A stretch of DNA of 64,000 nt, taken from assembly GCA_022340465.1 (NCBI GenBank), contig JAJDNW010000096.1:3280-67279 (forward strand), in the 5' to 3' direction. The notes under the pieces are model-generated. The model was given only the letters and a program-made list of their open reading frames with translations, made no database searches and was not told the origin of the DNA. A program made the translations under genes and the position numbers. Of the stretch, positions 14,173 through 61,101 are shown piece after piece. Source of the stretch: Deltaproteobacteria bacterium. Lineage in GTDB: Bacteria; Desulfobacterota; Desulfobacteria; Desulfobacterales; B30-G6. Positions within the stretch are counted from its first letter, which is position 1. Every line of letters begins with the position of its first letter.

Positions 14173-14214
14173 TAACCCAAATAACCCAGCAAACCCAATA
14201 ACACGCTAACCCGA
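14173..14214. repeat. Short tandem ~9-mer array (NNTAACCCA-like, 4-5 units) directly 3-prime of the HD gene stop
   Basis: 'taacccaaa taacccagc aaacccaat aacacgc taacccga', read directly from the sequence. Confidence 0.5.
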
Positions 14215-33309: not shown

Positions 33310-33335
33310 AAAAGCGTGTACCACGCTTTTATGAA
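33310..33335. repeat. Hairpin AAAAGCGTG-TAC-CACGCTTTT followed by ATGAA (family member), overlapping the stop of the 530-aa minus-strand gene
   Basis: Perfect 9-bp stem with the same architecture as 24492-24517. It sits where plus- and minus-strand ORFs converge. Confidence 0.6.
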
Positions 33336-34921: not shown

Positions 34922-35118
34922 ATTTCAGCATAGCATCAACGCCCTGCGATTTGAAAGCTTGAAAAACCGGCGGGGAAGCATTAACGTAGTGCTATCGTTC
35001 GTTGCCAATAATATCCCGACGGCAAATCGGCGACCTCCGGTAGAGCCTTAAGGTATTGGGGAGGCATCTTGAAGTGGCCGCTCTGCCCTCGATTCCGATG
35101 CTTTTCTATGGGGTGCAC

Positions 35119-37017
35119 ATGAAAACCGAAGGTTACTGGGCCGACAATTACGTCGAAAAAAAATGCAATGCGGAACATGCCATTAAAAAGATAAAAGCGG
35201 GGCAGCGCGTGTTCATCGGCTCCTCGTGCGGCGAACCCCAACATCTGGTTCAGGCCCTGGGGGAAGCCTCCAACCGCTATACCGACATCGAAATCGTCCG
35301 CCTCCTGGCCCTTGAAAGCACCCCCCTGACACTGATTGCCAACAAGTCCAAAAGTCAGAACCTGACCATACGGTCCTTTTACCTGGGGTCGGCCAAGGCG
35401 GAGCGGTTGTCGAGAAACCAGCGCTTCATCACCCCCATCAACCTGTCGGCCATACCGCGTCTGTTCCGCAGCCGTTTCCTACCCATCAATGTGGCCCTGA
35501 TCCAGGTGACGCCGCCGGATGATTTCGGCTGGATGAGCCTGGGGGTATCGGTGGACATCACCCTGGCCGCAGCATTGTCGGCAGACATCGTCATCGCCCA
35601 GGTGAATACCAACATGCCGCGCGTGCTGGGCCAGAGCTTCGTCCACGTGAACGACGTGGACTACATCGTCGAGCACGACGAACCCCTGATCAGCATCGAC
35701 AAGCGTCCGGAAAATGAATCGGCCGAGGAGGTCGGCAGGCTGATCGCGCGGCTGATAGAGGACGGTTCCACGCTCCAGTTCAGCCCGGGAACGACTCCCC
35801 AGGCCACCCTTCTGGCGCTGGCCGACAAGAACGACCTGGGGGTGCACACGCACTACCTGACGGATGAAATCATGCACCTGGTTTCACGGGGCGTCATCAA
35901 CAACCGGAAAAAGGGATTCAACGACGGAAAACTAGTGGCCAGCACCGCCTTGGGGACAAAAAACCTGTTCGAGTTCATCGACAACAACCCCAGTATCGAA
36001 TTTCATCCGTCGGACTACGTCAATGACCCCTCCGTCATCAGCCGCCACAACAAAATGGTGTCATTCAGCGTGGGCATGGCCATGGACCTTACCGGCCAGG
36101 TGGCCGCCGATGCCTTGCCCCACAACAATTTTTCGGGTGTCACCGGCATGCTGGACTTCATCAGGGGCGCCTCGCAGTCCCCGGGCGGCAAATCCTTTAT
36201 TCTAATGACCGCCACGGCCATGCAGGGGAAAAAAAGCCGCATCGTGCCCATGCTTGACCACACCGCCGTGGTGGTTCCCCGTGGGGACGTGCATTACGTA
36301 GCCACCGAATTCGGCGTTGTGAACCTCTTCGGCAAAAGCCTTCAGGAAAGGGCCACGGCCATGATCAGCATCGCCCATCCGGATTTTCGCGATGAATTGT
36401 TCCACGAAGCCAAGCAGCAGGGCCTCTTCGGGGCCGAACGGACCCTGGCGGAATCCATATCCGGTATATACCCGCGCCACCTGGAGGAGAATATCCTCAT
36501 CGACAACCAGACCGTAACCGTCCGACCGTCCAAGCCTGTGGACGAACGCCGCATTCAGGAACACTTTTATACCCTCGAGAAAAACGATATCGTGGCCCGG
36601 TTTTTTCACGAAAAAACCGCATTTGTTCACGACGAGGTAGGCAAGGTTTCCCAGGTGGATTACGTCAAGGATCTGACCATCGTGGCCGTCGTCGGGGAAT
36701 TCGGCTTCGGCAAGGTCATCGGTGTGGGGGAATACCTGCTGGACCCTTCCAATAATATGGCCGAGGTGGCCTTTTCCGTGTCCAAGGAATTCAAACGCAA
36801 GGGCCTGGGGAAAATCCTGATGAAAAAACTCTGCCAGGCGGCCCGGGAAAAAGGCATTTCCGGCCTGTTTGCCTACACCTCCCACGAAAACAAGGGAATG
36901 ATCAATCTTTTCAAGACGCTGCCCTACAAAGTCAAAAAAATATTCGAAGAGGACATGATTCTTTTGAAATGCAGCTTCGATGAACCGTTAACCAGCGACA
37001 ATGATCAAGCGAGGTAA
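35119..37017 (+). CDS. Acetyl-CoA hydrolase/CoA-transferase-family domain fused to a C-terminal Pat-type GNAT acetyltransferase domain
   Basis: N-terminal ~480 aa: 'KAGQRVFIGSSCGEPQHLVQAL', 'LQFSPGTTPQATL' and 'GVTGMLDFIRGA' fit the 4-hydroxybutyrate/acetate CoA-transferase fold. C-terminal ~150 aa: 'AEVAFSVSKEFKRKGLGKILMKKLCQAAREKGISGLFAYTSHENKGMINLFKTL' resembles the GNAT of protein acetyltransferase Pat. Confidence 0.8.
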   Translation: MKTEGYWADNYVEKKCNAEHAIKKIKAGQRVFIGSSCGEPQHLVQALGEASNRYTDIEIVRLLALESTPLTLIANKSKSQNLTIRSFYLGSAKAERLSRNQRFITPINLSAIPRLFRSRFLPINVALIQVTPPDDFGWMSLGVSVDITLAAALSADIVIAQVNTNMPRVLGQSFVHVNDVDYIVEHDEPLISIDKRPENESAEEVGRLIARLIEDGSTLQFSPGTTPQATLLALADKNDLGVHTHYLTDEIMHLVSRGVINNRKKGFNDGKLVASTALGTKNLFEFIDNNPSIEFHPSDYVNDPSVISRHNKMVSFSVGMAMDLTGQVAADALPHNNFSGVTGMLDFIRGASQSPGGKSFILMTATAMQGKKSRIVPMLDHTAVVVPRGDVHYVATEFGVVNLFGKSLQERATAMISIAHPDFRDELFHEAKQQGLFGAERTLAESISGIYPRHLEENILIDNQTVTVRPSKPVDERRIQEHFYTLEKNDIVARFFHEKTAFVHDEVGKVSQVDYVKDLTIVAVVGEFGFGKVIGVGEYLLDPSNNMAEVAFSVSKEFKRKGLGKILMKKLCQAAREKGISGLFAYTSHENKGMINLFKTLPYKVKKIFEEDMILLKCSFDEPLTSDNDQAR

Positions 37018-49268: not shown

Positions 49269-49512
49269 CAGAATTGCCCCCCGCCAAAAAATGTGTCCCC
49301 AGTCTATATTTCCATACGTGTGGGTAGAGATTTCCCGTTACCAGATTGCGCTTTTGAAATAAATAGATTTATGAAGCATCGACCCATTATTTTTGCATTT
49401 TCTGGCCACCCTGTTTTTTATCTTGACATCCATGCAATTATAAGTGTATCTTTCTCCATCAGTTGATGGAAACATTTAATGGGACAATATTGCTGGAACA
49501 GGGGATGTAACC

Positions 49513-50139
49513 GTGCCCTCACCGCTTGAAAAAGCCCGTCAGGATCCCGGCTCCATGAAAGCCCGCATCCTGGCCTCCGCCAGGAAATTGTTCGGGGAAT
49601 ACGGATACAACCGTACGACCACGCGCATGATTGCCGCGGACGTGGGCATCGATATTTCCACCCTTTACTATCACTGGGGGGAAAAGCTGGATCTTTACGA
49701 AGCCCTCATCACCGATCTCAACGACGAAATCCTGGGTAAATTCGAAGAGGTCGAGAAGCAGGCCCGGGGCAAATCCCTTTCAGAACGCCTGGAAATATCT
49801 ATCGATCTTCTCACGGCCTACCTGTTCAAACACCCGGAAGTGTCCAACCTGATTCTTTTCGGCTATTTCAACAAAACCGAGCCGGGAAGCGTTCCCGACA
49901 TAAAAATAAAAATCGACGACTACACATCGGGCATCGCCGTTGCCATGGACCTTGCGAAAGACAAAGCCCATGTGGCTGTTCAGGACAAGGCCCGCATCCT
50001 GGCCGTCTGGAACTGCGTGCTCAACTTCATTTCAGGCGAAAATTTTTTCAGGCCCATCTTGAAAGTGGACCGCGAAGGCTACCGGTCGGTGGTCCGGGAA
50101 ACAGTCAAATTCATGATGGTGCCGGCGTTCACAAAATAA
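49513..50139 (+). CDS. TetR/AcrR-family transcriptional regulator
   Basis: 'ILASARKLFGEYGYNRTTTRMIAADVGIDISTLYYHWGEK' is a TetR HTH. GTG start at 49513, with an alternative ATG at 49555. Confidence 0.85.
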   Translation: MPSPLEKARQDPGSMKARILASARKLFGEYGYNRTTTRMIAADVGIDISTLYYHWGEKLDLYEALITDLNDEILGKFEEVEKQARGKSLSERLEISIDLLTAYLFKHPEVSNLILFGYFNKTEPGSVPDIKIKIDDYTSGIAVAMDLAKDKAHVAVQDKARILAVWNCVLNFISGENFFRPILKVDREGYRSVVRETVKFMMVPAFTK

Positions 50140-50251
50140 ATTTTCATGGATGGCTGAAAAAGCCATTCATGCAGTTAACAGTAGTTTCCGTACAAACTGA
50201 TCATCATCGTTCCTTTTAATCAAGAAAATTTATTTCCAAAGGAGGAATCCC

Positions 50252-52360
50252 ATGGCGTTGAATCTTGATGCTGTCGGAAAAAAAATCGGCCCTGTTTCCA
50301 AAGACTACACCTGGAAGGACGCCGTGTTGTACGCCTTAGGCGTCGGTGCCGGTTTTTCCGATCTGGAGTACTGCTACGAAAAGGACCTGAAGGTTGTCCC
50401 CAGCTTTGCCATCACCACAATTTATGATGTCATGCCCGAGGCCGTCTCGCTGACCAATGTCAACCTGGCCGGCATCCTGCACGGTGAACAGGAGATCGTC
50501 TTTCACAACCCCATACCGCCTGATGGCACCATGATCTCGGAAGGAAAGATCCTCAACTACTACGACAAAGGCAAAGACAAAGGTGCCCTGGTGGTTGCCG
50601 AGGCCGAGACAAAACACTCCAACGGCCAGAAGCTGTTCACCTCCAGCATGACCATCTTCTCACGCCTCGACGGCGGCTTTGGCGGCGAGAACCGGCCCCG
50701 GGAAAAATTCGAATTTCCGGACAGAGAGCCGGATTTCAGTGTCAATGCGTCCCCGTCCGAAAATCAGCCCCTCCTCTACCGGCTCTCCGGGGATGTCTTC
50801 CAGCTTCACGTGGATCCGGAATTTGCCAAAATGGCCGGCTTCGAAAAACCCATCATGCACGGGTTGTGCACCCATGGATATGCCTGCCGGGCATTGATCC
50901 AGAGCCTCATTCCCGGGGAACCCGAAAAAGCCCGGCGTATGTGCTGCCGCTTCTCGAGACCCCTCTATCCGGGCATGCCGCTTGCCATACAAATCTGGAA
51001 AACCGAAGAGGGCAAAGCCGTCTGGCGCGTCCAGAATATAGAGACCCAGGAGATCGTTATCGACAACGGTATTTTCGAATACGGTGACATCCCCCGGGAC
51101 GAGATCCGCTTTGACGGCCGTGTTGCCGTGGTGACCGGTGCCGGTGCGGGGTTGGGACGCGTGTATGCCCTGGAATTGGCCAAACGGGGTGCCAAGGTTG
51201 TGGTCAACGACCTGGGTGGCGCAAGGGATGGCGCGGGGGAAGGCTCCTCCAGCCCGGCCGACAAGGTTGTGGAGGAGATCAAGACCGCCGGTGGAGAGGC
51301 CGTAGCCAACTATGACAACGTGGCCACGGCGGAAGGCGGTGAAAACATCGTCAAAACCGCCCTGGATGCCTTCGGCACCGTCGACATCCTGATCAACAAC
51401 GCCGGCATCCTGAGGGACAAGAGTTTCCTCAAGATGGATCCCGAAAATTGGCAAGCCGTATTGAACGTACACCTCAACGGCGCCTACAACGTCACCCGTC
51501 CGGCGTTTGCCGTCATGAAGGAAAAGGGCTACGGACGCATCCTCATGACCACCTCGGCCGCCGGCCTCTACGGCAATTTCGGTCAGACCAACTACACGGC
51601 CGCCAAAATGGGCCTCATCGGCCTGATGAACACCCTAAAAATCGAAGGCCAGAAATACGGCATCCATGTCAACACCATCGCCCCGGTAGCCGCCTCCCGG
51701 CTGACCGAAGACGTGCTGCCGCCTGATTTTTTCGAAAAATTGAAACCGGAATTCGTGGCGCCCATTGCCCTGTATCTCTGTTCCGAGGCGTGTGATGAAA
51801 CCGGCGGTATCTACAATGCCGGCATGGGCTGTTACAACCGGGCGGCCATCGTTACCGGCCCCGGTGTGGTCGTCGGCGACGGCCAGGCCGTCCCCACCCC
51901 GGAAGAGCTTGTGGCCCAGTGGGATAAGGCCAAGAGCCTCGAGGGAGCCAAAACCTATTTTCAGCTGAACGAACAGATCGGCGACCTCATCGGCGCCCTG
52001 GCGAAACCCGCCGACGACGCCGGCGTCGCAGTGCCGGCCGAGGTCTCCGTCGCCGACATTTTCAAAGGCCTGCCCGATGCCTTCGTGCCCGAAGCGGCCG
52101 GCGGCGTGGAAGTCGTCTTCCAGTTCACCATCACGGGAGACGACGGCGGCGAATGGTACTGTGACATCAAGGACGGTGCCTGCACCATCAAATCCGGCAA
52201 GCATGCCAAACCGGTCTGCACCCTGGAAATGGGAGACAAGGATTTCGTTGCCCTGATGACCGCCAAGCTGCCGGCCATGCAGGCCTACACCTCCGGCAAG
52301 CTGAAAATCGGGGGTGACATCATGAAATCCCAGCTCATCGAAAAACTCTTCAAAATGTAA
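50252..52360 (+). CDS. Trifunctional fusion: double hot-dog MaoC (R)-hydratase, MFE-2-type SDR (3R-hydroxyacyl-CoA dehydrogenase), SCP2 sterol-carrier domain
   Basis: 702 aa. MaoC: 'LLYRLSGDVFQLHVDPEFAKMAGFEKPIMHGLCT'. SDR: 'VAVVTGAGAGLGRVYALELAKRGAKVVVNDLGG', 'INNAGILRD', 'YTAAKMG'. SCP2: 'FQFTITGDDGGEWYCDIKDG...AYTSGKLKIGGDIMKSQ'. Confidence 0.85.
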   Translation: MALNLDAVGKKIGPVSKDYTWKDAVLYALGVGAGFSDLEYCYEKDLKVVPSFAITTIYDVMPEAVSLTNVNLAGILHGEQEIVFHNPIPPDGTMISEGKILNYYDKGKDKGALVVAEAETKHSNGQKLFTSSMTIFSRLDGGFGGENRPREKFEFPDREPDFSVNASPSENQPLLYRLSGDVFQLHVDPEFAKMAGFEKPIMHGLCTHGYACRALIQSLIPGEPEKARRMCCRFSRPLYPGMPLAIQIWKTEEGKAVWRVQNIETQEIVIDNGIFEYGDIPRDEIRFDGRVAVVTGAGAGLGRVYALELAKRGAKVVVNDLGGARDGAGEGSSSPADKVVEEIKTAGGEAVANYDNVATAEGGENIVKTALDAFGTVDILINNAGILRDKSFLKMDPENWQAVLNVHLNGAYNVTRPAFAVMKEKGYGRILMTTSAAGLYGNFGQTNYTAAKMGLIGLMNTLKIEGQKYGIHVNTIAPVAASRLTEDVLPPDFFEKLKPEFVAPIALYLCSEACDETGGIYNAGMGCYNRAAIVTGPGVVVGDGQAVPTPEELVAQWDKAKSLEGAKTYFQLNEQIGDLIGALAKPADDAGVAVPAEVSVADIFKGLPDAFVPEAAGGVEVVFQFTITGDDGGEWYCDIKDGACTIKSGKHAKPVCTLEMGDKDFVALMTAKLPAMQAYTSGKLKIGGDIMKSQLIEKLFKM

Positions 52361-52387
52361 TTTTTGCCAAGAAGAAATTACTTGACG

Positions 52388-52452
52388 CGGCTTCCGTCTT
52401 CGCTCTGCAAGCTACGCCGGACAAGACACCGAACCAAGCCGCCGCTATAAAA
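52388..52452. repeat. Conserved ~50-65 nt non-coding element (copy 1), 3-prime of the first SCP2 fusion gene
   Basis: 'cggcttccgtcttcgctctgcaagctacgccggacaag...gccgctataaa' is near-identical to 55351-55403 apart from a 15-nt indel. Confidence 0.75.
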
Positions 52453-52520
52453 CAATACATTTTCCAAACACTTTTTTCTAATACTGATGGCAACAATTTT
52501 TCGACCACAGCGACATGCGG

Positions 52521-52562
52521 CAAACACACGAAACAATCTTTGTGACCTTTGTGCCTTTGTGG
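52521..52562 (+). repeat. 5-prime-UTR element: three tandem CCTTTGTG octamers preceded by a partly complementary ACACACGAAACAA tract
   Basis: 'caaacacacgaaacaa tc tttgtgacctttgtgcctttgtgg', 20 nt upstream of the AAGGAGG ribosome-binding site of the next gene. Confidence 0.55.
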
Positions 52563-52596
52563 TTCGAACGTATACAGAATAAGGAGGAATCACACG

Positions 52597-55323
52597 ATGA
52601 TTGGAATTACTTCATACGGCGCATACATCCCCCGCCTGAGACTGGACAGGATGTCCATTTTTCAATCCATGGGCTGGTTCGCACCGGCCATCATGATGGT
52701 TGCACAAGGGGAGCGCTCCATGTGCAACTGGGACGAAGACACGATCACCATGGCCGTGGCCGCATCGAGAGACTGCCTGAAGGGCGTCGACAAATCCGCC
52801 ATAGACGGCCTCTACCTGGCGTCGACCACCCTGCCCTTTGCCGACCGGCAGAACGCCGGCATCGTCTCCGCGGCCCTGAATCTGGGGAGCCGGCTCATCA
52901 CCTCGGACTTCTCCGCCTCGCAAAAGGCCGGCAGCACGGCGCTGATCACGGCCCTGGAATCGGTCAAGAGCGGCGAGCGCAAGAACGTGCTGGTAACGGC
53001 TTCCGACAGGCGCGAAACCAAGACCGCCTATTTCTACGAGATGTGGTTCGGCGATGGCGCCGGAGCCTTCACGGTGGGCGCCGAAAACGTCATTGCCGAA
53101 TACAAGGGGTCCTTTTCCGTGTCCCACGACTTCGTGGACCACTACCGCGGCGCGCGGAAGGCCGTCGACTACATGTGGGAGGAACGCTGGACCAGGGATG
53201 CCGGTTATGCCCTCATCATCCCCGAAGCGGTCAACGGACTGCTGGAAAAACTCGCTATGTCCATGGACGACGTGGACAAACTGGTCTACCCGTGCTTTTT
53301 CAAGGGCGACCACAAGAAGATTGCCGCCAAACTGGGAGCGGCCGATAAGCTAGTGGACAACCTGCACGACGTGTGCGGCGAGTGCGGTGTGGCCCACCCC
53401 TTCCTGATGATGATGTCGGCCCTGGAAACCGCCAAGCCCGGCGACAATATCCTCATGGCCGGTTTCGGCCAGGGCTGCAACGCCATGCTTTTCACCGCGA
53501 CCGACAACATTGCCGCGCTGCCTCCCCGCAACGGGTTCCAGGGAACGCTGGCCAACAAGAAAACCGTTTCCAACTACGAAAAATGGCTGAAATTCAGGGA
53601 TCTGATCCAGACCGAGATGGGCATTCGCGCCGAAGCCCCCACCCAGACCGCTACCACCGTTTTGTGGCGCAAGAACAAGATGATCCTGGGACTGGTGGGC
53701 GGAAAATGCCGTGAATGCGGCACGCTGCAATTCCCCAAACATGACATCTGTGTCAACCCCACGTGCGGGGCCGTCCACAGCCAGGATGATCATGAATTCG
53801 CCGATGAACCGGCCGTGGTTAAAACCTTCACCGGCGACATGCTGTCCGTTTCCGTGGACCCGCCGGCCATCTACGGCATGGTGCAGTTCGAGAACGGCGG
53901 CCGGCTGATGGCCGACTTCACCGATTGTGAACTCGACGACATGAAGGTGGGCCTGCCCGTCAAGATGGAGTTCAAACGCAAGGGGGTGGACGTCGAACGA
54001 GGGTTCACCAACTATTTCTGGAAAGCGGTCCCCGTACCCGGGGCTGCCGCCGCTGCCGACCGGATAACTTTCGACGGCCGCGTCGCCGTCATTACCGGCG
54101 CCGGTGCCGGCCTGGGCCGGGTGTACGCCCTGGAGCTGGCCAAGCGCGGTGCCAAAATCGTCGTTAACGACCTGGGCGGCGCCCGGGACGGCTCGGGAGA
54201 AGGCTCTGCCAGTCCGGCCGACAATGTCGTGGCCGAAATCAGGGAACTGGGCGGAGAAGCCGTTGCCAACTACGACAATGTCGCCACCCCCGAAGGCGGC
54301 GAGGCCATCATCCGGTCCGCCGTGGACGCCTTCGGCGGCGTGGACATCGTGATCAACAACGCCGGCATCCTGAGGGACAAGAGCTTCCTAAAGATGGACC
54401 CCGAAAACTGGGCCACCGTCCTCGCGGTTCACCTGAACGGTGCCTATCACGTCACCCGGCCGGCCATGCAGATCATGAAGGAAAAGGGCTATGGCCGCAT
54501 CGTCATGACCACCTCGGCCGCCGGACTCTACGGCAACTTCGGCCAGACCAACTACTCGGCGGCCAAGATGGGCCTGGTCGGCCTGATGAACACCATCAAG
54601 CTGGAGGGCGCCAAATACAACATCAAGGTCAACACCATTGCACCCATCGCGGCTTCCAGGCTCACGGAGGACGTCATGCCGCCGGACCTTTTCGAAAAAT
54701 CCAAACCCGAATTCGTGGCCCCCATGGTTATCCGCCTGGCCAGCGAGGCCTGTGAGGAGACGGGTGCCATTTTCAACGTCGGTATGGGCTACTTCAACCG
54801 GGCCGCCGTACACACCGGTCCGGGCGTGCAGCTGGGAGACCAGGACAACATCCCCACCCCGGAAGACATACGGGACAACTGGGAGGCGATCAACTCGCTC
54901 AAAGGCGCCAGGGAGATGGCGGATGCCAATGACGCCATCTTCGCTCTTATCGCTCCGCCCAAGGAAGAAGCGGCCGCAGAAGATGCCGCTGCTGCCGGCG
55001 ACCTGGACGTCAAGACCTTCTTCGAAGAGAAGATGCCGGCAACCTTCAAAGCCGATGCCGCCGATGGCGTGGACGTGGTCTTTCAGTTCATCATTTCCGG
55101 AAGCGGGGGGGGCGATTGGCACTGTGTGGTCAAGGACAACACCTGCACCATTCAGGCCGGGAAGCACGGAGCTCCCACGTGTACGCTCAAAATGGGCGAC
55201 GGCGATTTCCTGAGCATGATGACCGGTAAACTGCCTGCCATGCAGGCCTTCACGTCCGGGAAGCTGCAGATCGAAGGTGATATTATGAAGTCACAGCTGA
55301 TTGAAAAGCTGTTCACCATATAA
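52597..55323 (+). CDS. Tetra-domain fusion: HMG-CoA-synthase-like thiolase-fold domain (catalytic residues apparently absent), DUF35 Zn-ribbon/OB fold, MFE-2-type SDR, SCP2
   Basis: ATG at 52597, 10 nt after AAGGAGG. N-terminus 'MIGITSYGAYIPRLRLDR' and 'NWDEDTITMAV' are archaeal-HMGCS-like. 'GGKCRECGTLQFPKHDICVNPTCG' is the DUF35 ribbon. The SDR and SCP2 domains are about 75-80% identical to those of the upstream gene. Confidence 0.8.
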   Translation: MIGITSYGAYIPRLRLDRMSIFQSMGWFAPAIMMVAQGERSMCNWDEDTITMAVAASRDCLKGVDKSAIDGLYLASTTLPFADRQNAGIVSAALNLGSRLITSDFSASQKAGSTALITALESVKSGERKNVLVTASDRRETKTAYFYEMWFGDGAGAFTVGAENVIAEYKGSFSVSHDFVDHYRGARKAVDYMWEERWTRDAGYALIIPEAVNGLLEKLAMSMDDVDKLVYPCFFKGDHKKIAAKLGAADKLVDNLHDVCGECGVAHPFLMMMSALETAKPGDNILMAGFGQGCNAMLFTATDNIAALPPRNGFQGTLANKKTVSNYEKWLKFRDLIQTEMGIRAEAPTQTATTVLWRKNKMILGLVGGKCRECGTLQFPKHDICVNPTCGAVHSQDDHEFADEPAVVKTFTGDMLSVSVDPPAIYGMVQFENGGRLMADFTDCELDDMKVGLPVKMEFKRKGVDVERGFTNYFWKAVPVPGAAAAADRITFDGRVAVITGAGAGLGRVYALELAKRGAKIVVNDLGGARDGSGEGSASPADNVVAEIRELGGEAVANYDNVATPEGGEAIIRSAVDAFGGVDIVINNAGILRDKSFLKMDPENWATVLAVHLNGAYHVTRPAMQIMKEKGYGRIVMTTSAAGLYGNFGQTNYSAAKMGLVGLMNTIKLEGAKYNIKVNTIAPIAASRLTEDVMPPDLFEKSKPEFVAPMVIRLASEACEETGAIFNVGMGYFNRAAVHTGPGVQLGDQDNIPTPEDIRDNWEAINSLKGAREMADANDAIFALIAPPKEEAAAEDAAAAGDLDVKTFFEEKMPATFKADAADGVDVVFQFIISGSGGGDWHCVVKDNTCTIQAGKHGAPTCTLKMGDGDFLSMMTGKLPAMQAFTSGKLQIEGDIMKSQLIEKLFTI

Positions 55324-55347
55324 AATTTGCGGAGCAAATTTTATGGA
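55322..55347. repeat. Stop-overlapping hairpin AAAATTTGC-GGA-GCAAATTTT followed by ATGGA (family member)
   Basis: Perfect 9-bp stem beginning inside the TAA stop at 55321-55323. Same layout as 24492-24517. Confidence 0.6.
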
Positions 55348-55350
55348 ACA

Positions 55351-55403
55351 CGGCTTCCGTCTTCGCTCTTCGAGCTACGCCGAGACAAGTCGCCGCTATA
55401 AAG
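55351..55403. repeat. Conserved non-coding element (copy 2), 3-prime of the second SCP2 fusion gene
   Basis: 'cggcttccgtcttcgctcttcgagctacgccgagacaagtcgccgctataaa'. See 52388-52452. Confidence 0.75.
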
Positions 55404-55449
55404 ATTCTATCGGGAATTTATATGAAATCGCATTTTAAAACGACGACAT

Positions 55450-55497
55450 CACGAAGGCAAAGAGGCTGCTTAACATTGTGCTCTTTGTGTCTTTGTG
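55450..55497 (+). repeat. 5-prime-UTR imperfect hairpin with a CTTTGTG-repeat arm, upstream of the thiolase gene
   Basis: 'cacgaaggcaaagag' ... 'ctctttgtgtctttgtg'. Several pairs are G-T, which would be G-U wobble only in a plus-strand transcript. Confidence 0.55.
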
Positions 55498-55532
55498 GTT
55501 CCGTTTAATCCTGATTTAGAAGGAGGCATATA

Positions 55533-56741
55533 ATGGCCACTGGAATTAAAGATAAAGTAGCAATTATCGGTATGGGATGCACCCGCTTTGGGGAACGCTG
55601 GGATGTCGGATCCGAGGAACTCATGGTGGAGGCCTTTCAGGAGTGCCTGGAGGATGCCGGTATAGAAAAAAACGACATCGAGGCGGCCTGGTTCGGCTGC
55701 TGCCTGGACGAAGTCAACGTGGGCAAAAGCGCCCTGCCCCTTTCACTGACCCTGCGGTTGCCCTTGATTCCCGTCACCCGGGTGGAAAACTTCTGTGCCA
55801 CCGGCACCGAGGCTTTCAGGGGGGCTGTTTACGCGGTCGCATCCGGCGCCTACGATATCTGCCTCGCCCTGGGCGCCGAGAAACTCAAGGACACGGGCTA
55901 CGGGGGGCTGCCCAGCTTTACCGGGTCCAACGCGGGCACATTGACCTGGCAGTGGTTCCCCAACCTGACCGCGCCGGGCTCCTTCGCCCAGCTGGCCAGC
56001 GCCTACGCCGCCAAGTACAGGGTTCCGGATCAGGACCTCAAACGGGCCATGGCCCACGTGTCGGCCAAGAGCCACGCCAACGGCGCCCTCAATCCCAAGG
56101 CCCATTTGAGAAAAAAGGTGACCGAAGATCAGGTAATGGCGGCCCCCATCATCGCCCATCCCCTGGGGCTCTTCGACTGCTGCGGGGTGAGCGACGGTGC
56201 GGCCTGTGCCATCGTGACCACGCCTGAAATAGCCCAAAAGATGGGCAAAAAGGATTTCGTTAGCGTAAAGGCCCTGCAGCTGGCATTGAGCAGCGGCGAA
56301 GAAATGGGGTACAACGAGTGGGACGGCGACCACTTCATGACCACCAGCAAGTGCAGCCGGATGGCTTACAAGGAAGCCGGCATCGACAACCCGCGCGAGG
56401 AGATCAGCATGATGGAGGTTCACGACTGCTTCTCCATCACCGAACTGGTGACCTATGAAGACCTGCACATTTCCGAAAGGGGCCGGGCGGTCAAGGACAT
56501 CATGGACGGGTTTTACGACCGGGACGGCCAGGTTCCCTGCCAGGTGGACGGCGGCCTCAAGTGTTTCGGCCACCCCATCGGGGCATCCGGCCTGCGCATG
56601 CTTTACGAAATGTACCTGCAGCTGCACGGCCGGGCCGGCGACCGACAGATCGACAATCCGACCTACGGCCTGACGCACAACCTGGGCGGATTCCCGGCCA
56701 TGAACGTGTGCAGCATATCCATCATCGGCAAATACAATTGA
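55533..56741 (+). CDS. SCP2-type (SCPx/archaeal-like) thiolase
   Basis: 402 aa. Nucleophile region 'VENFCATGTEAF'. The diagnostic 'EVHDCF' loop of SCP2-thiolases. 'CFGHPIGASGLRM' and 'THNLGG'. Confidence 0.9.
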   Translation: MATGIKDKVAIIGMGCTRFGERWDVGSEELMVEAFQECLEDAGIEKNDIEAAWFGCCLDEVNVGKSALPLSLTLRLPLIPVTRVENFCATGTEAFRGAVYAVASGAYDICLALGAEKLKDTGYGGLPSFTGSNAGTLTWQWFPNLTAPGSFAQLASAYAAKYRVPDQDLKRAMAHVSAKSHANGALNPKAHLRKKVTEDQVMAAPIIAHPLGLFDCCGVSDGAACAIVTTPEIAQKMGKKDFVSVKALQLALSSGEEMGYNEWDGDHFMTTSKCSRMAYKEAGIDNPREEISMMEVHDCFSITELVTYEDLHISERGRAVKDIMDGFYDRDGQVPCQVDGGLKCFGHPIGASGLRMLYEMYLQLHGRAGDRQIDNPTYGLTHNLGGFPAMNVCSISIIGKYN

Positions 56742-56796
56742 TACAAAGACCGGTATCAATTGCATTTGTGAACGCGACTGCGCCGCTAATAAACTA

Positions 56797-56883
56797 GGAT
56801 TCGAGGGTTAAAGGGCTCGAGTGAATTAAATGATTTGCTAATTAAATAGGTTTCACTCGGCCCCTGGATCCCTCGAACCCTTT
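56797..56883. repeat. Imperfect ~29-bp inverted repeat (CTCGAR-CCCT word family) flanking a 26-nt AT-rich loop, between the thiolase and ACAD genes
   Basis: Left arm 'ggattcgagggttaaagggctcgagtgaa'. Right arm 'ttcactcggcccctggatccctcgaaccc', about 24/29 complementary. The loop contains a direct 'aattaaat' x2. Confidence 0.65.
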
Positions 56884-56910
56884 CGAAAAACCAAACACCA
56901 AATAAAAACC

Positions 56911-58053
56911 ATGCAAATACTGAACTTCACGCCTGAACACGACGCCTTCCGGAAACGGCTGCGGGAATTTATCGCCCAAGAAATCACGCCCAACGTCGAG
57001 CAGTGGGAAAAGGACGGAATCGAGCCCAAGGAGATCTGGCGCAAGATGGGCCGGGGGGGATTTCTCTGCACGGACGTAAAAGAGGCCTACGGGGGCATTG
57101 GCGGGGACTTTCTCTACTCCGTCATCGTCACCGAAGAGATCTCCTACACCTTCCACACGGGTCTGGCCGCGGCGCTTCACTCGGATGTCGTGGTGCCCTA
57201 CATCAGCTCTTTCGGTACGGAAGCGCAGAAACAACAATACCTGCCGGGATGCGTGAGTGGAGATATTGTCACTGCGATCGCCATGACCGAACCCGGGGCC
57301 GGCAGCGATCTGGCCGGCCTGGCCACCACCGCCGAAGAGGAGGGCGGCGAGGTCGTCATCAACGGTTCCAAAACCTTTATTTCCAACGGTATCAATGCCG
57401 ACCTCGTGATTGTGGCCGCCAGGGATCCGGCCGTGGAAAACCCCTACCAGGCGCTGTCGCTTTACATCGTCGAAAACGGTACGCCCGGCTTCGAACGCGG
57501 CCGGCATCTGGACAAAATGGGCTGGCGCAGCCAGGACACGGCGGAGCTGTTTTTTTCCAAGTGCAGAATCCCCGTGACAAACCGCCTCGGTGAAAAAGGG
57601 CAGGGTTTCCTCATGCTCATGCAGAAACTCCAGCAGGAAAGGCTGGTGACCGCCGTGGGGGCTGTCACGGCGGCCGAACGCATCGTGGAGTGGATCACCC
57701 GCTTCTGCAAGGAGACCCAGGTGTCCGGTAAACCGATCTCCAAGTCGCAGGCCGCCCAGTTCGCGCTGGTCGAAATGGCTGCCGATGTCAAACTGGGCAG
57801 AACTTTTATGGAGAAGCTGGTGGCCGACCACATGGAAGGAAGCGACATCATCATCGAGACCTCCATGGCTAAATTCTGGACGACGGAGATGGTCAGAAGG
57901 GTCGCCGACCGCGCCATGGACCTGCTGGGCAACGAGGCCACCGTGGAAAAGTACCCCGTGACCCGCGCCTGGCGCGATGTCCGCGTAATGTCTATCTTTG
58001 CCGGAACCAACGAGGTGATGCGGGGGATCGCCGCCAAGTTCATGGGACTCTGA
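56911..58053 (+). CDS. Acyl-CoA dehydrogenase, IVD/LCAD-type placement of the catalytic base
   Basis: 380 aa with a typical ACAD fold ('AMTEPGAGSDLAG', 'INGSKTFISNG'). The C-terminus reads 'IFAGTNEV' (Ala where MCAD-type enzymes have Glu), while 'KLQQERLV' supplies a Glu at the isovaleryl-CoA-dehydrogenase position. Confidence 0.9.
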   Translation: MQILNFTPEHDAFRKRLREFIAQEITPNVEQWEKDGIEPKEIWRKMGRGGFLCTDVKEAYGGIGGDFLYSVIVTEEISYTFHTGLAAALHSDVVVPYISSFGTEAQKQQYLPGCVSGDIVTAIAMTEPGAGSDLAGLATTAEEEGGEVVINGSKTFISNGINADLVIVAARDPAVENPYQALSLYIVENGTPGFERGRHLDKMGWRSQDTAELFFSKCRIPVTNRLGEKGQGFLMLMQKLQQERLVTAVGAVTAAERIVEWITRFCKETQVSGKPISKSQAAQFALVEMAADVKLGRTFMEKLVADHMEGSDIIIETSMAKFWTTEMVRRVADRAMDLLGNEATVEKYPVTRAWRDVRVMSIFAGTNEVMRGIAAKFMGL

Positions 58054-58061
58054 ATGCCCGG

Positions 58062-58172
58062 CGTTTTACGTTTTACGTGTTAGGTTTTAGATGGCAGCGT
58101 GGCTTATGTCACTCGACAAAAAAATCATTCCACCAACAATTCCCCGAAACGTAAAACATAAAACCTAAAACG
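58062..58172. repeat. Long imperfect inverted repeat whose arms are tandem heptamers (CGTTTTA x4 / TAAAACN x4) around a ~54-nt loop
   Basis: 'cgttttacgttttacgtgttaggttttag' ... 'cgaaacgtaaaacataaaacctaaaacg', starting 9 nt after the ACAD stop. Confidence 0.65.
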
Positions 58173-58251
58173 GCTTGTCATTGATATGGTAAATCAATCA
58201 TTAAAACATAACTGAACCCTGCCATATTTTTAAACAAAGAGGAAGGAATCA

Positions 58252-59748
58252 ATGGACTACGACGTCATTGTCATCGGAGCGGGAAACGGGGGCCTGACCG
58301 CGTCAGCAACCCTGGCTCGCAAGGGGCGGAAGGTGCTGCTGCTGGAACGGCACAACATCCCCGGAGGATGCGCCACCAGCTTCTGCCGGGGGCGTTTCGA
58401 ATTCGAGATCGCCCTGCACCAGCTCAGCGGATTGGGGACTCCTGAAAAGCCCGGCCCGCTGCGCATGACCCTGGACGGTCTCGGCATTATGGATGACCTC
58501 ACGTTCGTCGAAATCTCGGATCTGTACAGTGTCTGCATGCCGGACGGTTTTCATGCCGCTCTCAAGCCCGACAAAGGCCAGGTCGTAAGCGAACTCAAGG
58601 CGAAATTCCCCCACGAAAAAGAAGGCATCGACGGTTTTTTCGATCTCGTGTACAAGTACGCCGGCGATATGATCGGGGCCTTCATTTTTCGCGACCCGGA
58701 GCCTTCCCGGGAAAAATACCCCCACCTGTACCGCTATGCCTTAAAAAATGCCAAGGCGGTCATCGACGACTTTTTCAAGGATCCGCTCCTGAAGGCCGTC
58801 ATATCGGTATACTGGGGATATCTGGGTCTTTCCACCGACCAGCTTTCTTTTGCCTACCTGGCCATGGTCCTTTTCCAGTACATCGAGTTCAAGCCCTTTC
58901 ACGTCAAGGGCGGCTCCCAGGCGTTGTCCAATGCCATTCTGAATGTGTTCCTGAAAGCCGGCGGGGATGTCCGCTTCAACTGCGGGGCGAAGCGCATTCT
59001 CACCGAAAACAACCGGATAATAGGCGTCGCCACCGACGACGGCGATACCGTGGAAGCGCCGTATGTGGTCTCGAACATCTCCCCGGTGGTCACCTACTCC
59101 GAGCTGATCGGCAAAGACCTGATCCCAGCCAAGACCCTGCAAAAGATGCACAGCAGAAGCTTGAGCAACTCGGCCTTTACCATGTTCATCGGATTCGACT
59201 GCGAGCCCGACGTGCTGAACATCGAGGAGTCCACCAATTTCCTGATGGCCTCCACGGATATCTCACGATCGCTCCATGACCGCATGCAGAGCGTCGACAT
59301 CACGGACGAATTGCTGGTACTGAGCTGCTACGATATTTCCGACCCCACTTTTTCCCCGCCGGGAACCTGCCAGGCCAACCTCGTGACGCTAAAATACGGC
59401 GAACCCTGGCTGAACATTCCCCCGGGCCGATACCATGACGTAAAGTTCCGCTGCGCAGAATCGATGCTGAAACGGGCCGAGGCAATCTTTCCCGGCCTGC
59501 GGCCCCACATCGAAGAGATCGATGTGGGCACGCCGCTCACCCACATGCGCTACCTCGGTCACCCGGCGGGCGCGGTATACGGTTTCGAGCACCGCACCAA
59601 AGACTCCATGTTTTTTCAGCCCGGCCGCAACTCACCGGTTGAGGGTCTCTCCTTTGCCGGCAGCTGGGTCGGCGACGGGGGCTTCGAGCCTACTTTGCGC
59701 TCCGGAGTGGCCGCCGCCAAATCTATTTTACGCAAAAGCGGCGGTTGA
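58252..59748 (+). CDS. CrtI/RetSat-family FAD-dependent oxidoreductase (phytoene-desaturase-like; possible C=C saturase or desaturase)
   Basis: 498 aa. 'YDVIVIGAGNGGLTASATLARKGRKVLLLERHNIPGGCATSF' is a dinucleotide fold of the COG1233 type. C-terminal 'FAGSWVGDGGF'. Confidence 0.8.
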   Translation: MDYDVIVIGAGNGGLTASATLARKGRKVLLLERHNIPGGCATSFCRGRFEFEIALHQLSGLGTPEKPGPLRMTLDGLGIMDDLTFVEISDLYSVCMPDGFHAALKPDKGQVVSELKAKFPHEKEGIDGFFDLVYKYAGDMIGAFIFRDPEPSREKYPHLYRYALKNAKAVIDDFFKDPLLKAVISVYWGYLGLSTDQLSFAYLAMVLFQYIEFKPFHVKGGSQALSNAILNVFLKAGGDVRFNCGAKRILTENNRIIGVATDDGDTVEAPYVVSNISPVVTYSELIGKDLIPAKTLQKMHSRSLSNSAFTMFIGFDCEPDVLNIEESTNFLMASTDISRSLHDRMQSVDITDELLVLSCYDISDPTFSPPGTCQANLVTLKYGEPWLNIPPGRYHDVKFRCAESMLKRAEAIFPGLRPHIEEIDVGTPLTHMRYLGHPAGAVYGFEHRTKDSMFFQPGRNSPVEGLSFAGSWVGDGGFEPTLRSGVAAAKSILRKSGG

Positions 59749-59813
59749 CAATTCTTGGCGCAACACGTTTGACAACCGGCATTTTAAAGAAGCAAACAAA
59801 ATGAACCATGAAA

Positions 59814-59865
59814 ACACGAAAACCGAAAATCACGAAACCGGCGACATTTTTCGTGCTTTCGTGAT
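59814..59865. repeat. Imperfect inverted repeat with tandem CACGAAA / TTTCGTG units, between the RetSat-like and reductase genes
   Basis: 'acacgaaaaccgaaaatcacgaaa' ccggcgaca 'tttttcgtgctttcgtgat'. Confidence 0.6.
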
Positions 59866-59940
59866 GGCATGATCTTCTTCTCCAGGTTGTTCAGGATGGA
59901 TGGAAGGTCTGTCGGCCGTTTTTTTTAATATCGGGAGGGC

Positions 59941-61101
59941 ATGATGAGAAAAGGCATCTGGCAGGAATTCGACGGGTACGAGGAAATTGCCGGGGAGATC
60001 GAAAACAGCCTCTGGGCCGCCGGGGAGCGCTCTTTTGACAAGGTGCTGGCCGCCCGTTATATCCAGCGGCTCCACCCGCGGCAATTGAAACTCAGGGTAG
60101 TGGATGTCATCCAAGAAACGCCCTCGACCAGGACCCTGCGTCTTACCCCGGTCGATGCGGCCCTGCCGCCGTTTCTTGCCGGCCAGTACATCCCGCTGTA
60201 CCTCACCATCGGCGGCATCCGCACCAGCCGGCCCTACAGCATCTCGTCCCAGCCAAGGCAGACCGGGTTTTACGACATCACGGTGCGTCGCGTCCCCGAT
60301 GGACTGGCATCGAACTATCTCATGGATGACGTCAAGATCGGCAATCTGCTCGAAAGCGCCGGCCCCCAGGGCAATTTTTACTTCAACCCCCTCTTCCATG
60401 ACGACCACATGGTGTGTATCGCCGGCGGCAGCGGTATTACGCCCTTCATGAGCATGATCCGTGAAATCGTGGAGTGCGGGCTGGACAGGACCGTTACCCT
60501 CCTCTACGGCAACCGGCAATTGGACGACGTCATCTTTCACGACGAGCTAGAACGCATCGCCGCGCGGTTCGACAACATCACCTACATACCGGTGATCGAA
60601 AAACCGGCCGAGGGCTACCGGGGTGCCTGCGGATATATCAACGCCGCGCTGCTCAAAGAAATGCTTGGCGACCTGCAGGGTAAAACATTCTTTCTCTGCG
60701 GGCCGCAGGGCCTGTACGACTTCTGCCTGCCTGAGCTCGAAAGCCTGGGGATTGAAAGGCGCAAGATCAGAAAGGAGATGTACGGACCGCCCGGCGACAT
60801 ATGTTCATATCCGGGGTGGCCGGAAGAGATCGCTGCCGAAGACCGCTTTACGGTGACGCTCAAGGACGGTCGGACCGTCAGCGCCAGGGCGGGCGTCCCC
60901 CTGCTCGTCTCCCTGGAGAAGAAAGGCATCGTGCCGTCTTCCATCTGCCGGTCCGGTGAATGCAGCATGTGCCGGGTCAAGGTTCTTTCCGGCAAGGTGT
61001 TCCAGCCCGCCGGTACCCCGGTGCGCAGGTCGGACACCCGGTACGGGTACGTGCATTCGTGCGTTTCGTATCCGCTCGAAGATTTGGAGATAATGATCTG
61101 A
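59941..61101 (+). CDS. Ferredoxin-NAD(P)+ reductase-like flavoprotein with a C-terminal plant-type 2Fe-2S ferredoxin domain
   Basis: 386 aa. FAD motif 'RPYSISS'. NAD motif 'IAGGSGITPF'. 2Fe-2S motif 'CRSGECSMCRVKV...HSC'. GGGAGGG ribosome-binding site upstream. Confidence 0.85.
   Translation: MMRKGIWQEFDGYEEIAGEIENSLWAAGERSFDKVLAARYIQRLHPRQLKLRVVDVIQETPSTRTLRLTPVDAALPPFLAGQYIPLYLTIGGIRTSRPYSISSQPRQTGFYDITVRRVPDGLASNYLMDDVKIGNLLESAGPQGNFYFNPLFHDDHMVCIAGGSGITPFMSMIREIVECGLDRTVTLLYGNRQLDDVIFHDELERIAARFDNITYIPVIEKPAEGYRGACGYINAALLKEMLGDLQGKTFFLCGPQGLYDFCLPELESLGIERRKIRKEMYGPPGDICSYPGWPEEIAAEDRFTVTLKDGRTVSARAGVPLLVSLEKKGIVPSSICRSGECSMCRVKVLSGKVFQPAGTPVRRSDTRYGYVHSCVSYPLEDLEIMI

Follow-up and report, generated by a model that had tools for sequence, protein, structure and literature searches.

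A conserved TetR-headed block of multidomain fusion genes in Desulfobacterota, putatively for (3R)-specific beta-oxidation of poorly soluble acyl-CoAs

The archaeal complex of thiolase, HMG-CoA synthase (HMGS) and DUF35 protein (6ESQ; 2018 study cited in PMC12960953) reportedly couples an unfavourable to a favourable reaction step by proximity. We describe a block of seven co-oriented open reading frames (ORFs) at positions 49513-61101 on the + strand of a 64-kb stretch of Desulfobacterales DNA (contig JAJDNW010000096.1; "the window" means this whole stretch), in which a gene for a TetR-family regulator is followed by six enzyme genes that encode, among others, the same three folds. The existence of this TetR-headed block of multidomain fusions, first noticed in a reading of the sequence without database searches ("the sequence-only reading"), is confirmed; the genes are co-oriented as stated, though six and not seven of them follow the regulator gene, making seven in total. 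We favour, with somewhat better than even confidence, that the block is a TetR-controlled catabolic operon for the (3R)-specific, NAD-linked beta-oxidation of long, poorly soluble acyl-CoAs that is built around a thiolase/pseudo-HMGS/DUF35 core, with substrates that are probably methyl-branched, isoprenoid-like or otherwise bulky. The operon is widely conserved in sulfate-reducing and syntrophic Desulfobacterota and uncharacterised.

The proposed resemblance of the thiolase/DUF35/HMGS-like trio to the archaeal complex was borne out by matches of the respective window parts to chains A, E and I of 6ESQ, and a fold search agrees; the trio likewise matches the three chains of PhlACB. The two systems have the three folds in common, the window thiolase retains the Cys, HDxF and GH elements, and the same proximity-coupling logic could apply. 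Unlike its archaeal counterpart, the HMGS part of the window lacks the catalytic tetrad and is fused to DUF35, an MFE-2-type dehydrogenase and an SCP2 domain, and whereas the archaeal complex serves mevalonate synthesis, the window proteins would serve beta-oxidation under a TetR regulator with a thiolase that would cleave.

Closer to home, around 1,000 bacterial HMGS-ACAT-DUF35 loci without secondary-metabolism partners have been reported (Nat Commun 2026, PMC12960953). The same study describes a fused, tetrad-less HMGS-DUF35 protein and an HDxF thiolase of Pseudomonas fluorescens, a pair that only cleaves acetoacetyl-CoA in vitro and was termed an evolutionary intermediate, without a pathway context (PMC12960953). 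Going by this published description, the window is alike in that a fused tetrad-less HMGS-DUF35 unit adjoins a thiolase with Cys, HDxF and GH, but this unit additionally carries a short-chain dehydrogenase (SDR) and an SCP2 domain and sits within a complete beta-oxidation operon. The block would thus give a metabolic context to bacterial thiolase/dead-HMGS/DUF35 loci that had been left as "evolutionary intermediates" (PMC12960953).

The other close relative is found in Sulfolobus acidocaldarius, where KT/DUF35 stably binds an (R)-specific SDR and a MaoC dehydratase, and where the complex synthesises fatty acids with NADPH and a separate enoyl reductase of MDR (medium-chain dehydrogenase/reductase) type (bioRxiv 10.1101/2024.07.05.601840). 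The same four component types are held together non-covalently in Sulfolobus and covalently in the window, as two fusions plus a thiolase. In contrast to the synthetic Sulfolobus complex with its NADPH-specific SDR and MDR enoyl-CoA reductase, which has neither an HMGS-fold subunit nor SCP2, the window shows an NAD-type SDR motif (judged from sequence) and an acyl-CoA dehydrogenase (ACAD) partner, and ligase, racemase and reductase genes are neighbours in related loci. By analogy with these assemblies, the block is best read as a bacterial equivalent of the archaeal KT/DUF35/SDR/MaoC complex in which components have been fused. The sequence-only reading had known of no characterized pathway with such an architecture; no published description of the Desulfobacterota block was found in the literature searched, most subscription journals being outside its reach, but the Sulfolobus complex and the Pseudomonas pair are closely comparable.

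Three further groups of systems share parts of this architecture. In PpATase, the catalytic Cys and Glu are missing from PhlA, and PhlA and PhlB are needed only for assembly of Phl(A2C2)2B4 with PhlC as the catalyst (PMC6392133). No other proteins match the HMGS-like domain better in sequence and structure than those of PhlACB and MucABC, whose HMGS-fold parts are likewise non-catalytic and structural; however, HDxF is missing from their thiolase-like subunit, which transfers acetyl groups to phenolic or tetramic acceptors and is encoded beside polyketide synthase (PKS) or nonribosomal peptide synthetase genes, whereas HDCF is invariant in 68 thiolases of the Desulfobacterota block and the neighbours are beta-oxidation genes. 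A PhlACB-like acyltransferase was therefore considered and ruled out because HDCF is kept and a PKS context is lacking. BbsAB with BbsCD, Ltp2-ChsH2(DUF35) and Shy/Sal also employ DUF35 as adaptor of an SCP2-type thiolase or aldolase for bulky CoA esters, but they have no HMGS-fold partner and no fusion to MFE-2-type SDR or SCP2, and the aldolases have altered catalytic residues unlike the window thiolase. Finally, the eukaryotic system of peroxisomal MFE-2 (HSD17B4), SCPx and AMACR with mitochondrial LCAD (long-chain ACAD) shares hydratase 2, the C-terminal SCP2 domain, an SCP2-class thiolase with HDCF and the LCAD-like ACAD, and related loci also share AMACR-like genes with eukaryotic branched-chain and bile-acid beta-oxidation. 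Unlike in eukaryotes, SCP2 is fused to both dehydrogenases and not to the thiolase, a pseudo-HMGS/DUF35 scaffold is added, the host is strictly anaerobic, and a dehydrogenase takes the place of the oxidase.

The four-domain fusion and its thiolase partner

The gene that most clearly sets the block apart encodes a fusion of four domains (52597..55323, + strand, 908 amino acids [aa]). Its ORF is listed from a TTG at 52549; the ATG at 52597 has AAGGAGGAA before it and gives a product that starts MIGITSYGAYIPR like the orthologues of 907-911 aa, so that we take the gene to be 52597-55323. From the N-terminus, the protein comprises a pseudo-HMGS domain (aa 1-340, nucleotides [nt] 52597-53616; ACP_syn_III / ACP_syn_III_C, the HMGS/KAS III fold), a DUF35 zinc ribbon with OB fold (aa 355-480, nt 53659-54036; zf-ChsH2 and OB_ChsH2_C), an MFE-2-type SDR (aa 490-745, nt 54064-54831; adh_short) and an SCP2 domain (aa 816-908, nt 55042-55320; SCP2), all on the + strand. 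As for all block proteins, every Pfam match exceeds the gathering score, and profile searches thus upheld each domain assignment that had been made by eye, including SCP2, DUF35 and the HMGCS-like part.

By sequence, the HMGS-like domain is closest to PhlA (9SKH_A, 2.8e-36) and then to archaeal HMGS (6ESQ_I, 1e-21), while the DUF35 part matches 6ESQ_E at 3.1e-10. An AF2 model of aa 1-485 from a diverse alignment (pLDDT 73.5, pTM 0.72) retrieved only PhlA, archaeal HMGS or MucA among the top ten of a fold search, with target-normalised TM scores of 0.79-0.85 and a TM of 0.85 against archaeal HMGS 6ET9_I. The HMGS-like assignment hence holds as far as the fold is concerned, but the whole E-C-H-N catalytic tetrad is gone in 83/83 orthologues: The positions of archaeal E82/C114/H238/N270 (PMC12960953) correspond to T77, Q109, P232 and E262 in the window protein and to T, L/Q/I/P/E/M, P and E across the orthologues. 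With this tetrad wholly replaced, the domain cannot make HMG-CoA, and HMG-CoA synthase activity was ruled out accordingly. The four zinc cysteines of DUF35 are invariant in the same 83 sequences, the SDR triad is invariant too, and the pseudo-HMGS domain (71% mean identity, 51 invariant columns) is conserved on par with the catalytic domains. DUF35 reaches 73%, and the linker at aa 341-360 that follows pseudo-HMGS reaches 88%. Judging from these patterns, the HMGS-like domain is probably a PhlA-like, catalytically dead scaffold.

The thiolase gene (55533..56741, + strand, 402 aa; Thiolase_N / Thiolase_C_1) follows directly. Its product scores 709 bits against NCBIfam PRK06157 (cutoff 403), and its best PDB matches are 7YVY, 6ESQ_A of the archaeal complex and BbsB (7PXP, 1.5e-41), which makes it a thiolase of the archaeal/SCP2 type with archaeal acetoacetyl-CoA thiolases and BbsB as nearest relatives. 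Cys88, HDCF at 297-300 and GH at 346-347 are invariant in 68 orthologues, and no other protein of the block is as conserved (83% mean identity); by its sequence, the enzyme appears catalytically intact.

Relatives of the block were sought in one genome per species, which gave 261 loci with a full-length relative of the four-domain fusion, and we inspected the best 80. All of these best 80 of 261 loci belong to Thermodesulfobacteriota, with hosts among Desulfobacterales, Syntrophales (including Smithellaceae), Desulfomonilaceae and Desulfatiglandales. Counting only related loci with enough flanking sequence, the MaoC-SDR-SCP2 gene is found directly upstream of the four-domain fusion in 69/70 cases and the thiolase gene directly downstream in 62/64, a TetR gene lies upstream of the block in 53/62, and an ACAD of the same type downstream in 44/50. 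This gene arrangement is far beyond chance, and a syntenic five-gene core of TetR, MaoC-SDR-SCP2, pseudoHMGS-DUF35-SDR-SCP2, thiolase and ACAD is present at essentially every related locus. The two last genes of the window block, encoding CrtI-like and FNR-type proteins, occur in only 8/51 loci reached via the fusion gene, but all three look-ups that started from CrtI-like homologues (67-72% identity) arrived at the same seven-gene block, which identifies the seven-gene version as a conserved, clade-specific form of the five-gene core. The survey of neighbourhoods that had been proposed with the sequence-only reading therefore found the core conserved and the CrtI/FNR pair confined to one clade. 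The carriers, Desulfosarcinaceae among them, are abundant Desulfobacterota of sediments and digesters, so the system may matter for the anaerobic turnover of long, branched or isoprenoid lipids. Direct tests of the block are possible in two hosts that are in culture, namely Desulfosarcina alkanivorans PL12 and D. widdelii PP31. One fusion relative in a Desulfobacterales chromosome assembled from a metagenome (L016, CP070694.1, 10001-12640; 76% identity over residues 1-880) has no detectable usual neighbours, which could reflect masking or misassembly of this stretch or a truly lone copy.

The four-domain fusion falls into one cluster when sequences are clustered at 50%. Many pseudoHMGS-DUF35 proteins of ca. 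485 aa exist besides, abundantly so in Thermodesulfobacteriota, and some sit in unfused loci: Desulfatibacillum alkenivorans AK-01 has the order ACAD-ACAD-SDR-[pseudoHMGS-DUF35]-thiolase-MaoC-MaoC, and in a Pseudomonadota metagenome-assembled genome (MAG) pseudoHMGS-DUF35 adjoins a thiolase, two ACADs and a crotonase. Such unfused loci of beta-oxidation type mark dead HMGS, DUF35 and thiolase as a recurrent thiolase module, of which the window shows the most fused form. Two variant proteins (P0122, P0124) were also seen, a 722-aa pseudoHMGS-DUF35-SCP2-SCP2 and an 800-aa pseudoHMGS-DUF35-SDR without SCP2 from a GC-rich organism.

That all parts also occur unfused is one of the points in favour of a simpler explanation, in which no supercomplex is formed: The fusions would fix a ratio of co-expression, the HMGS-like domain would be a relic, and the domains would act independently in ordinary beta-oxidation. 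Multidomain beta-oxidation enzymes without channelling are indeed common, and variation is unconstrained where the catalytic Cys would be expected (L/Q/I/P/E/M). A relic would be expected to decay, however, and this is at odds with the conservation of pseudo-HMGS, DUF35 and the linker given above; in addition, all three solved assemblies of this type need their HMGS-fold and DUF35 parts for a soluble, active thiolase-type subunit, and the thiolase gene almost always adjoins the fusion gene. We consider this explanation rather unlikely.

The permuted MFE-2 and its paired SDR-SCP2 modules

The first enzyme gene of the block (50252..52360, + strand, 702 aa, Pfam) encodes hydratase 2 (aa 1-277, nt 50252-51082; MFE-2_hydrat-2_N and MaoC_dehydratas), an MFE-2-type SDR (aa 284-545, nt 51101-51886; adh_short) and an SCP2 domain (aa 611-702, nt 52082-52357; SCP2), again all on the + strand. 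Its best PDB matches are Drosophila MFE-2 (3OML, 6.4e-133) and, for the SDR domain, human 17beta-HSD4 (1ZBQ, 4.4e-101), and the hydratase matches human hydratase 2 (1S9C) at 9.9e-47. The order of domains is hydratase 2 - SDR - SCP2 and not the canonical SDR - hydratase 2 - SCP2, a permutation already suspected from the sequence and evident in the 3OML alignment, where the segments are swapped. In the double hot-dog of the hydratase, "FQ" stands between the catalytic Asp and His instead of the usual "NP", while Asp181/His186 and the Ser-Tyr-Lys residues of the SDR are invariant in 60 orthologues of this fusion. Alignment to 3OML and 1ZBQ further shows the MFE-2 motifs TGxxxGxG, NNAG, Ser-Tyr-Lys and VVVNDLGG in the SDR. 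The protein would thus work like MFE-2 yet is a permuted relative rather than a canonical member of that family. From the Asp after beta-2 in VVVNDLGG, the SDRs are predicted to be NAD+-dependent, and membership in the family suggests (3R)-stereospecificity. At an unusually high 58% identity to fish peroxisomal MFE-2 and 54-58% to animal MFE-2, the SDR domain may bear on the origin of peroxisomal beta-oxidation, a thought for which these identities of up to ca. 58% are the basis.

The SDR-SCP2 module of this protein resembles that of the four-domain fusion, with 68% mutual identity in the window. A comparison across 58 genomes yielded no alignment column that tells the two paralogues apart, and their identity within a genome can reach 100%, 98%, 90% or 88% compared to 75-80% for the best orthologue; strongly homogenised pairs were seen at loci L065, L059, L051 and L039. 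In the window, the DNA similarity (51110-52419 versus 54070-55382) extends for ca. 60 nt beyond both stop codons. By these sequence comparisons, the two modules evolve in concert through repeated gene conversion, which suggests that they are functionally interchangeable. Dehydrogenases of the MFE-2 type are dimers, and such interchangeability would be consistent with mixed dimers through which the hydratase-bearing protein would be linked to the thiolase scaffold.

Direction of the pathway and likely substrates

Taken together, the block encodes an enzyme for each of the four reactions in a D-specific (MFE-2-type) beta-oxidation cycle, in agreement with the sequence-only reading. The first of them would fall to the ACAD (56911..58053, + strand, 380 aa, with three ACAD domains in Pfam), which had been called isovaleryl-CoA dehydrogenase (IVD)-type. 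This label was ruled out by closer matches to LCAD-type structures, i.e., Geobacillus 2PG0 (7.5e-126) and human LCAD 8W0T (2.6e-90), compared to 1e-55 to 1e-63 for IVD and the short- and medium-chain enzymes SCAD and MCAD (IVD itself at ~1e-57 to 1e-63). In the cycle that we propose, the LCAD-type ACAD would form a 2-enoyl-CoA, hydratase 2 of the permuted MFE-2 would hydrate it to the (3R)-hydroxyacyl-CoA, an MFE-2-type SDR would oxidise the latter with NAD+, and the archaeal/SCP2-type thiolase would cleave the resulting 3-oxoacyl-CoA, while the SCP2 domains could hold the hydrophobic tail. By analogy to the archaeal, PhlACB and MucABC assemblies, the thiolase would be held by DUF35 and the dead HMGS-fold partner, with the latter serving as scaffold and contributing to the chamber that binds CoA. 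Fusion of this scaffold to another dehydrogenase copy and SCP2 would place the endergonic dehydrogenation beside the exergonic thiolysis, and with the dehydrogenase tethered to the thiolase core, thiolysis could drain the uphill oxidation. Interchangeable SDR-SCP2 modules could also dock the hydratase-bearing protein and thereby create a non-homologous analogue of the trifunctional FadBA. These considerations suggest a second, non-homologous "trifunctional" machine of beta-oxidation in which peroxisome-type (MFE-2/SCPx-like) parts are mounted on an archaeal-type scaffold, and channelling of 3-oxoacyl-CoA would pay for hosts that live near the thermodynamic limit. The acetyl-CoA could feed the pathway of carbon monoxide dehydrogenase/acetyl-CoA synthase (CODH/ACS) that is encoded next door in the window and in four related loci.

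We infer the catabolic direction from the TetR gene with its palindrome (see below), the ACAD, the NAD-type motif, ligase, racemase and reductase genes as neighbours in related loci, and the thiolysis-only activity of the Pseudomonas pair. Several observations weigh against this or other parts of our interpretation. The archaeal fatty-acid synthase complex employs the same set of enzymes, so that chemistry alone leaves the direction unfixed, and NAD specificity is read from a single motif. The nearest NCBIfam model of the ACAD is the acryloyl-CoA reductase AcrC (under cutoff), ACADs with electron-transfer flavoprotein (ETF) can work reductively in anaerobes, and no ETF genes are adjacent to the block. 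Racemase, reductase and ligase neighbours are each seen in only 7-12 of ca. 80 loci and none of them in the window, where the intergenic spacers of 112-236 nt are long for an operon. A physical complex of thiolase, HMGS-fold domain and DUF35 is suggested by homology and gene adjacency, and the full-length AF2 model of the four-domain fusion (41 close orthologues; pLDDT 57.6, pTM 0.39) is too poor to judge domain packing or to serve in a fold search; expression, activity or interaction data for members of the block were not found in the literature. Lastly, the pseudo-HMGS domain keeps the invariant polar residues T77, D104, H182, R184 and C233 at or beside the old active site, which would allow for a new catalytic role.

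An anabolic function would be the converse reading: a bacterial synthase or elongase of fatty acids that works on CoA esters independently of ACP, in the manner of the Sulfolobus complex, with the scaffold pulling the endergonic Claisen condensation and either the ACAD (with ETF) or the CrtI-like/FNR pair acting as enoyl reductase. The component set of thiolase, DUF35, (R)-type SDR and MaoC as in the archaeal complex, the reductive nearest model of the ACAD and the presence of an NAD(P)H-fed flavoenzyme pair in the window speak for such a role. Against it, the SDR motif is that of MFE-2, which by its Asp after beta-2 is NAD-type and not NADPH-type, the host bacteria are expected to have an ordinary type II fatty-acid synthase, and an ACAD is present, with no MDR-type enoyl-CoA reductase in the window or the loci inspected. 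Moreover, acyl-CoA ligases, an AMACR-like racemase and a FadH-type reductase recur as neighbours, and the dead-HMGS/thiolase pair of Pseudomonas performed thiolysis but no condensation (PMC12960953). On this evidence, we regard an anabolic block as quite unlikely.

The invariant polar residues of the pseudo-HMGS domain, and its conservation at the level of the catalytic domains, would fit a different idea, namely that the HMGS fold has gained a new activity such as retro-aldol or lyase cleavage of 3-hydroxy-3-methylacyl-CoA and thus opens an O2-independent route past 3-methyl blocks, which animals pass by O2-dependent alpha-oxidation. The CrtI family acts on isoprenoids, and the CrtI-like enzyme, an AMACR-like racemase and MFE-2/SCPx-type enzymes could then join in a route for acids derived from phytol, archaeal lipids or squalene. 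Free variation at the old catalytic Cys position and the finding of thiolase activity only in the Pseudomonas relative speak against this idea, and we deem it very unlikely.

What the preferred catabolic operon would degrade can be approached through its accessory genes. In the window, these encode a divergent FAD enzyme of the CrtI/CrtISO family (58252..59748, + strand, 498 aa; Amino_oxidase 8.9e-19 / NAD_binding_8) and an FNR-type NAD(P)H:flavin reductase with a C-terminal 2Fe-2S ferredoxin domain (59941..61101, + strand, 386 aa; FAD_binding_6, NAD_binding_1 and Fer2). The former stays under the NCBIfam cutoffs (carot_isom 160 bits versus 587; crtI_fam 125 versus 238) and matches PDB CrtI 4DGK at 1.1e-18, so that its sequence supports membership in the CrtI/CrtISO/RetSat superfamily only. 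The latter is below every NCBIfam cutoff, with Hcr-type NADH oxidoreductase, GbcB and PaaE as the nearest models, and its gene follows the CrtI-like gene in 11/11 loci that carry the latter. We propose that the pair is an NAD(P)H-fed saturase or isomerase of chain double bonds, i.e., a clade-specific auxiliary that would reduce or isomerise them, and that a FadH/BaiCD-type reductase, a crotonase or an AMACR-like racemase would occupy its slot in other lineages. The slot after the ACAD indeed holds long-chain acyl-CoA ligases in 12 related loci, a Fe-S flavoenzyme of the FadH/BaiCD family in nine and crotonases in seven, besides long ACADs. An AMACR-like gene with family-III CoA-transferase fold is found directly 3' of the ACAD gene in seven loci (L019 at 17131-18300, L020, L023, L026, L033 of D. 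widdelii, L062 and L080), and its product is closer to AMACR/MCR (5.7e-63) than to true transferases (8e-52) among PDB relatives. Ligases, racemases, FadH-type reductases and crotonases are auxiliaries in the oxidation of unsaturated and 2-methyl-branched fatty acids, and these neighbours suggest long acyl chains with methyl branches or double bonds as a general class. Between thiolase and ACAD, L042 (15298-15688) and 14 other loci encode a conserved protein of 110-130 aa without NCBIfam match, which is absent from the window.

The sequence-only reading had thought of a bulky substrate such as a sterol or hopanoid side chain, an idea that the accessory genes sustain in its general form but not for sterols or hopanoids, of which no specific features were seen in the window or the loci inspected. 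Two SCP2 domains, the LCAD-type ACAD and enzymes of the MFE-2 and SCP2-thiolase types do parallel the animal set for pristanic acid and bile-acid intermediates. Degradation of sterol, hopanoid or bile-acid-like side chains, as by peroxisomal MFE-2/SCPx or actinobacterial Hsd4A/Hsd4B/Ltp-DUF35, would accord with this parallel, given that MFE-2-type enzymes, SCP2-type thiolase, SCP2 and LCAD-type ACAD are the enzyme types that act on animal cholestanoyl-CoA, and with the BaiCD-like Fe-S flavoenzyme in some loci. The BaiCD hit is not specific to steroids, however, because BaiCD and FadH belong to one family; genes for steroid rings or C25/C26 activation are lacking in the window and the loci inspected, the thiolase retains the full thiolase triad without aldolase-type substitutions, and Desulfobacterales, Syntrophales, Desulfomonilaceae and Desulfatiglandales, which carry the block, are not known as steroid degraders. 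Side chains of this kind are therefore decidedly unlikely as the substrate.

Regulatory elements, intergenic repeats and neighbouring genes

The TetR-family regulator (49513..50139, + strand, 208 aa; PF00440, E 2.7e-14) is preceded by a promoter-like TTGACA-18-TATCTT (49423..49452, + strand; 10/12 matches in a consensus scan), an assignment that rests on the consensus match, with such sites being no commoner in the region than in shuffles. Directly after its -10 hexamer follows the palindrome TCCATCA-GT-TGATGGA (49455..49470), a candidate TetR operator. TCCATCA-N2-TGATGGA has this single match in the window, even with two mismatches, and is found in exact form in 40/89 loci fetched; when the 250 nt upstream of TetR were scanned on their own, it outnumbered every other inverted repeat by a wide margin (37 loci). 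D. alkanivorans has a second copy within the spacer between TetR and the fusion gene. Position and conservation of the palindrome are what an autoregulated TetR operator looks like, and we regard it as a putative operator. As to the effector, PDB and NCBIfam searches with TetR gave matches to the helix-turn-helix region only. Spacers among the first four genes in related loci have medians of 53-71 nt and minima of 12-16 nt, and this compact gene order together with the operator-like palindrome supports one regulated unit. Counts of intrinsic terminators and promoters inside the block are not above those in shuffles and are neutral on internal transcription units.

A 31-nt intergenic repeat, GGCTTCCGTCTTCGCTCT-N3-AGCTACGCCG, lies just past the stop codons of the first (52389..52419, + strand) and second fusion (55352..55382, + strand); none of its two copies in the window would be expected by chance. 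A related MAG locus (L006) has a shorter core, CTTCGCT-N6-GCTACGCCG, after each of the first three enzyme genes (9854-9875, 12765-12786 and 14179-14200), and the motif was not seen in the other 88 loci fetched. The repeat could be a small, lineage-specific element resembling repetitive extragenic palindromes or a site of RNA processing. Other spacer features include a hairpin 5' of the thiolase gene (55442..55505, + strand; RNA fold -29 kcal/mol, z -2.4, 5/200 shuffles as good) and a long hairpin in the thiolase-ACAD spacer (56796..56881, + strand; spacer RNA fold -45.3 kcal/mol, z -3.8, 0/200 shuffles as good). Since only 2/7 tested segments fold better than shuffles, we abandoned the notion that every spacer holds a uniform hairpin. 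The spacers also hold low-complexity heptamer runs (CTTTGTG x3 near 52541-52570 and 55478-55500), while direct and inverted heptamers rich in A/T are seen at 58062-58175 and 59805-59872.

The block is flanked on its 5' side by a CODH/ACS cluster of the bacterial kind, which includes RACo and AcsE, and by a divergent gene of the major facilitator superfamily, and on its 3' side by genes for a DUF6765 protein and an M20 peptidase on the opposite strand. Scans of the window with Rfam and for tRNAs gave no matches. Elsewhere in the window, two putative long ORFs of 474 and 530 aa (20474-21898 and 33329-34921, both on the - strand) have no Pfam match at E <= 1e-5. A 1459-aa protein encoded at 3735-8114 consists of two BcrAD/BadFG-type ATPase (activase) units fused to DUF2229, with no obvious partner enzyme nearby. 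Immediately 5' of the RACo/CODH/ACS genes, an acetyl-CoA hydrolase/transferase of 653 aa (35056-37017) carries a C-terminal GNAT acetyltransferase domain.

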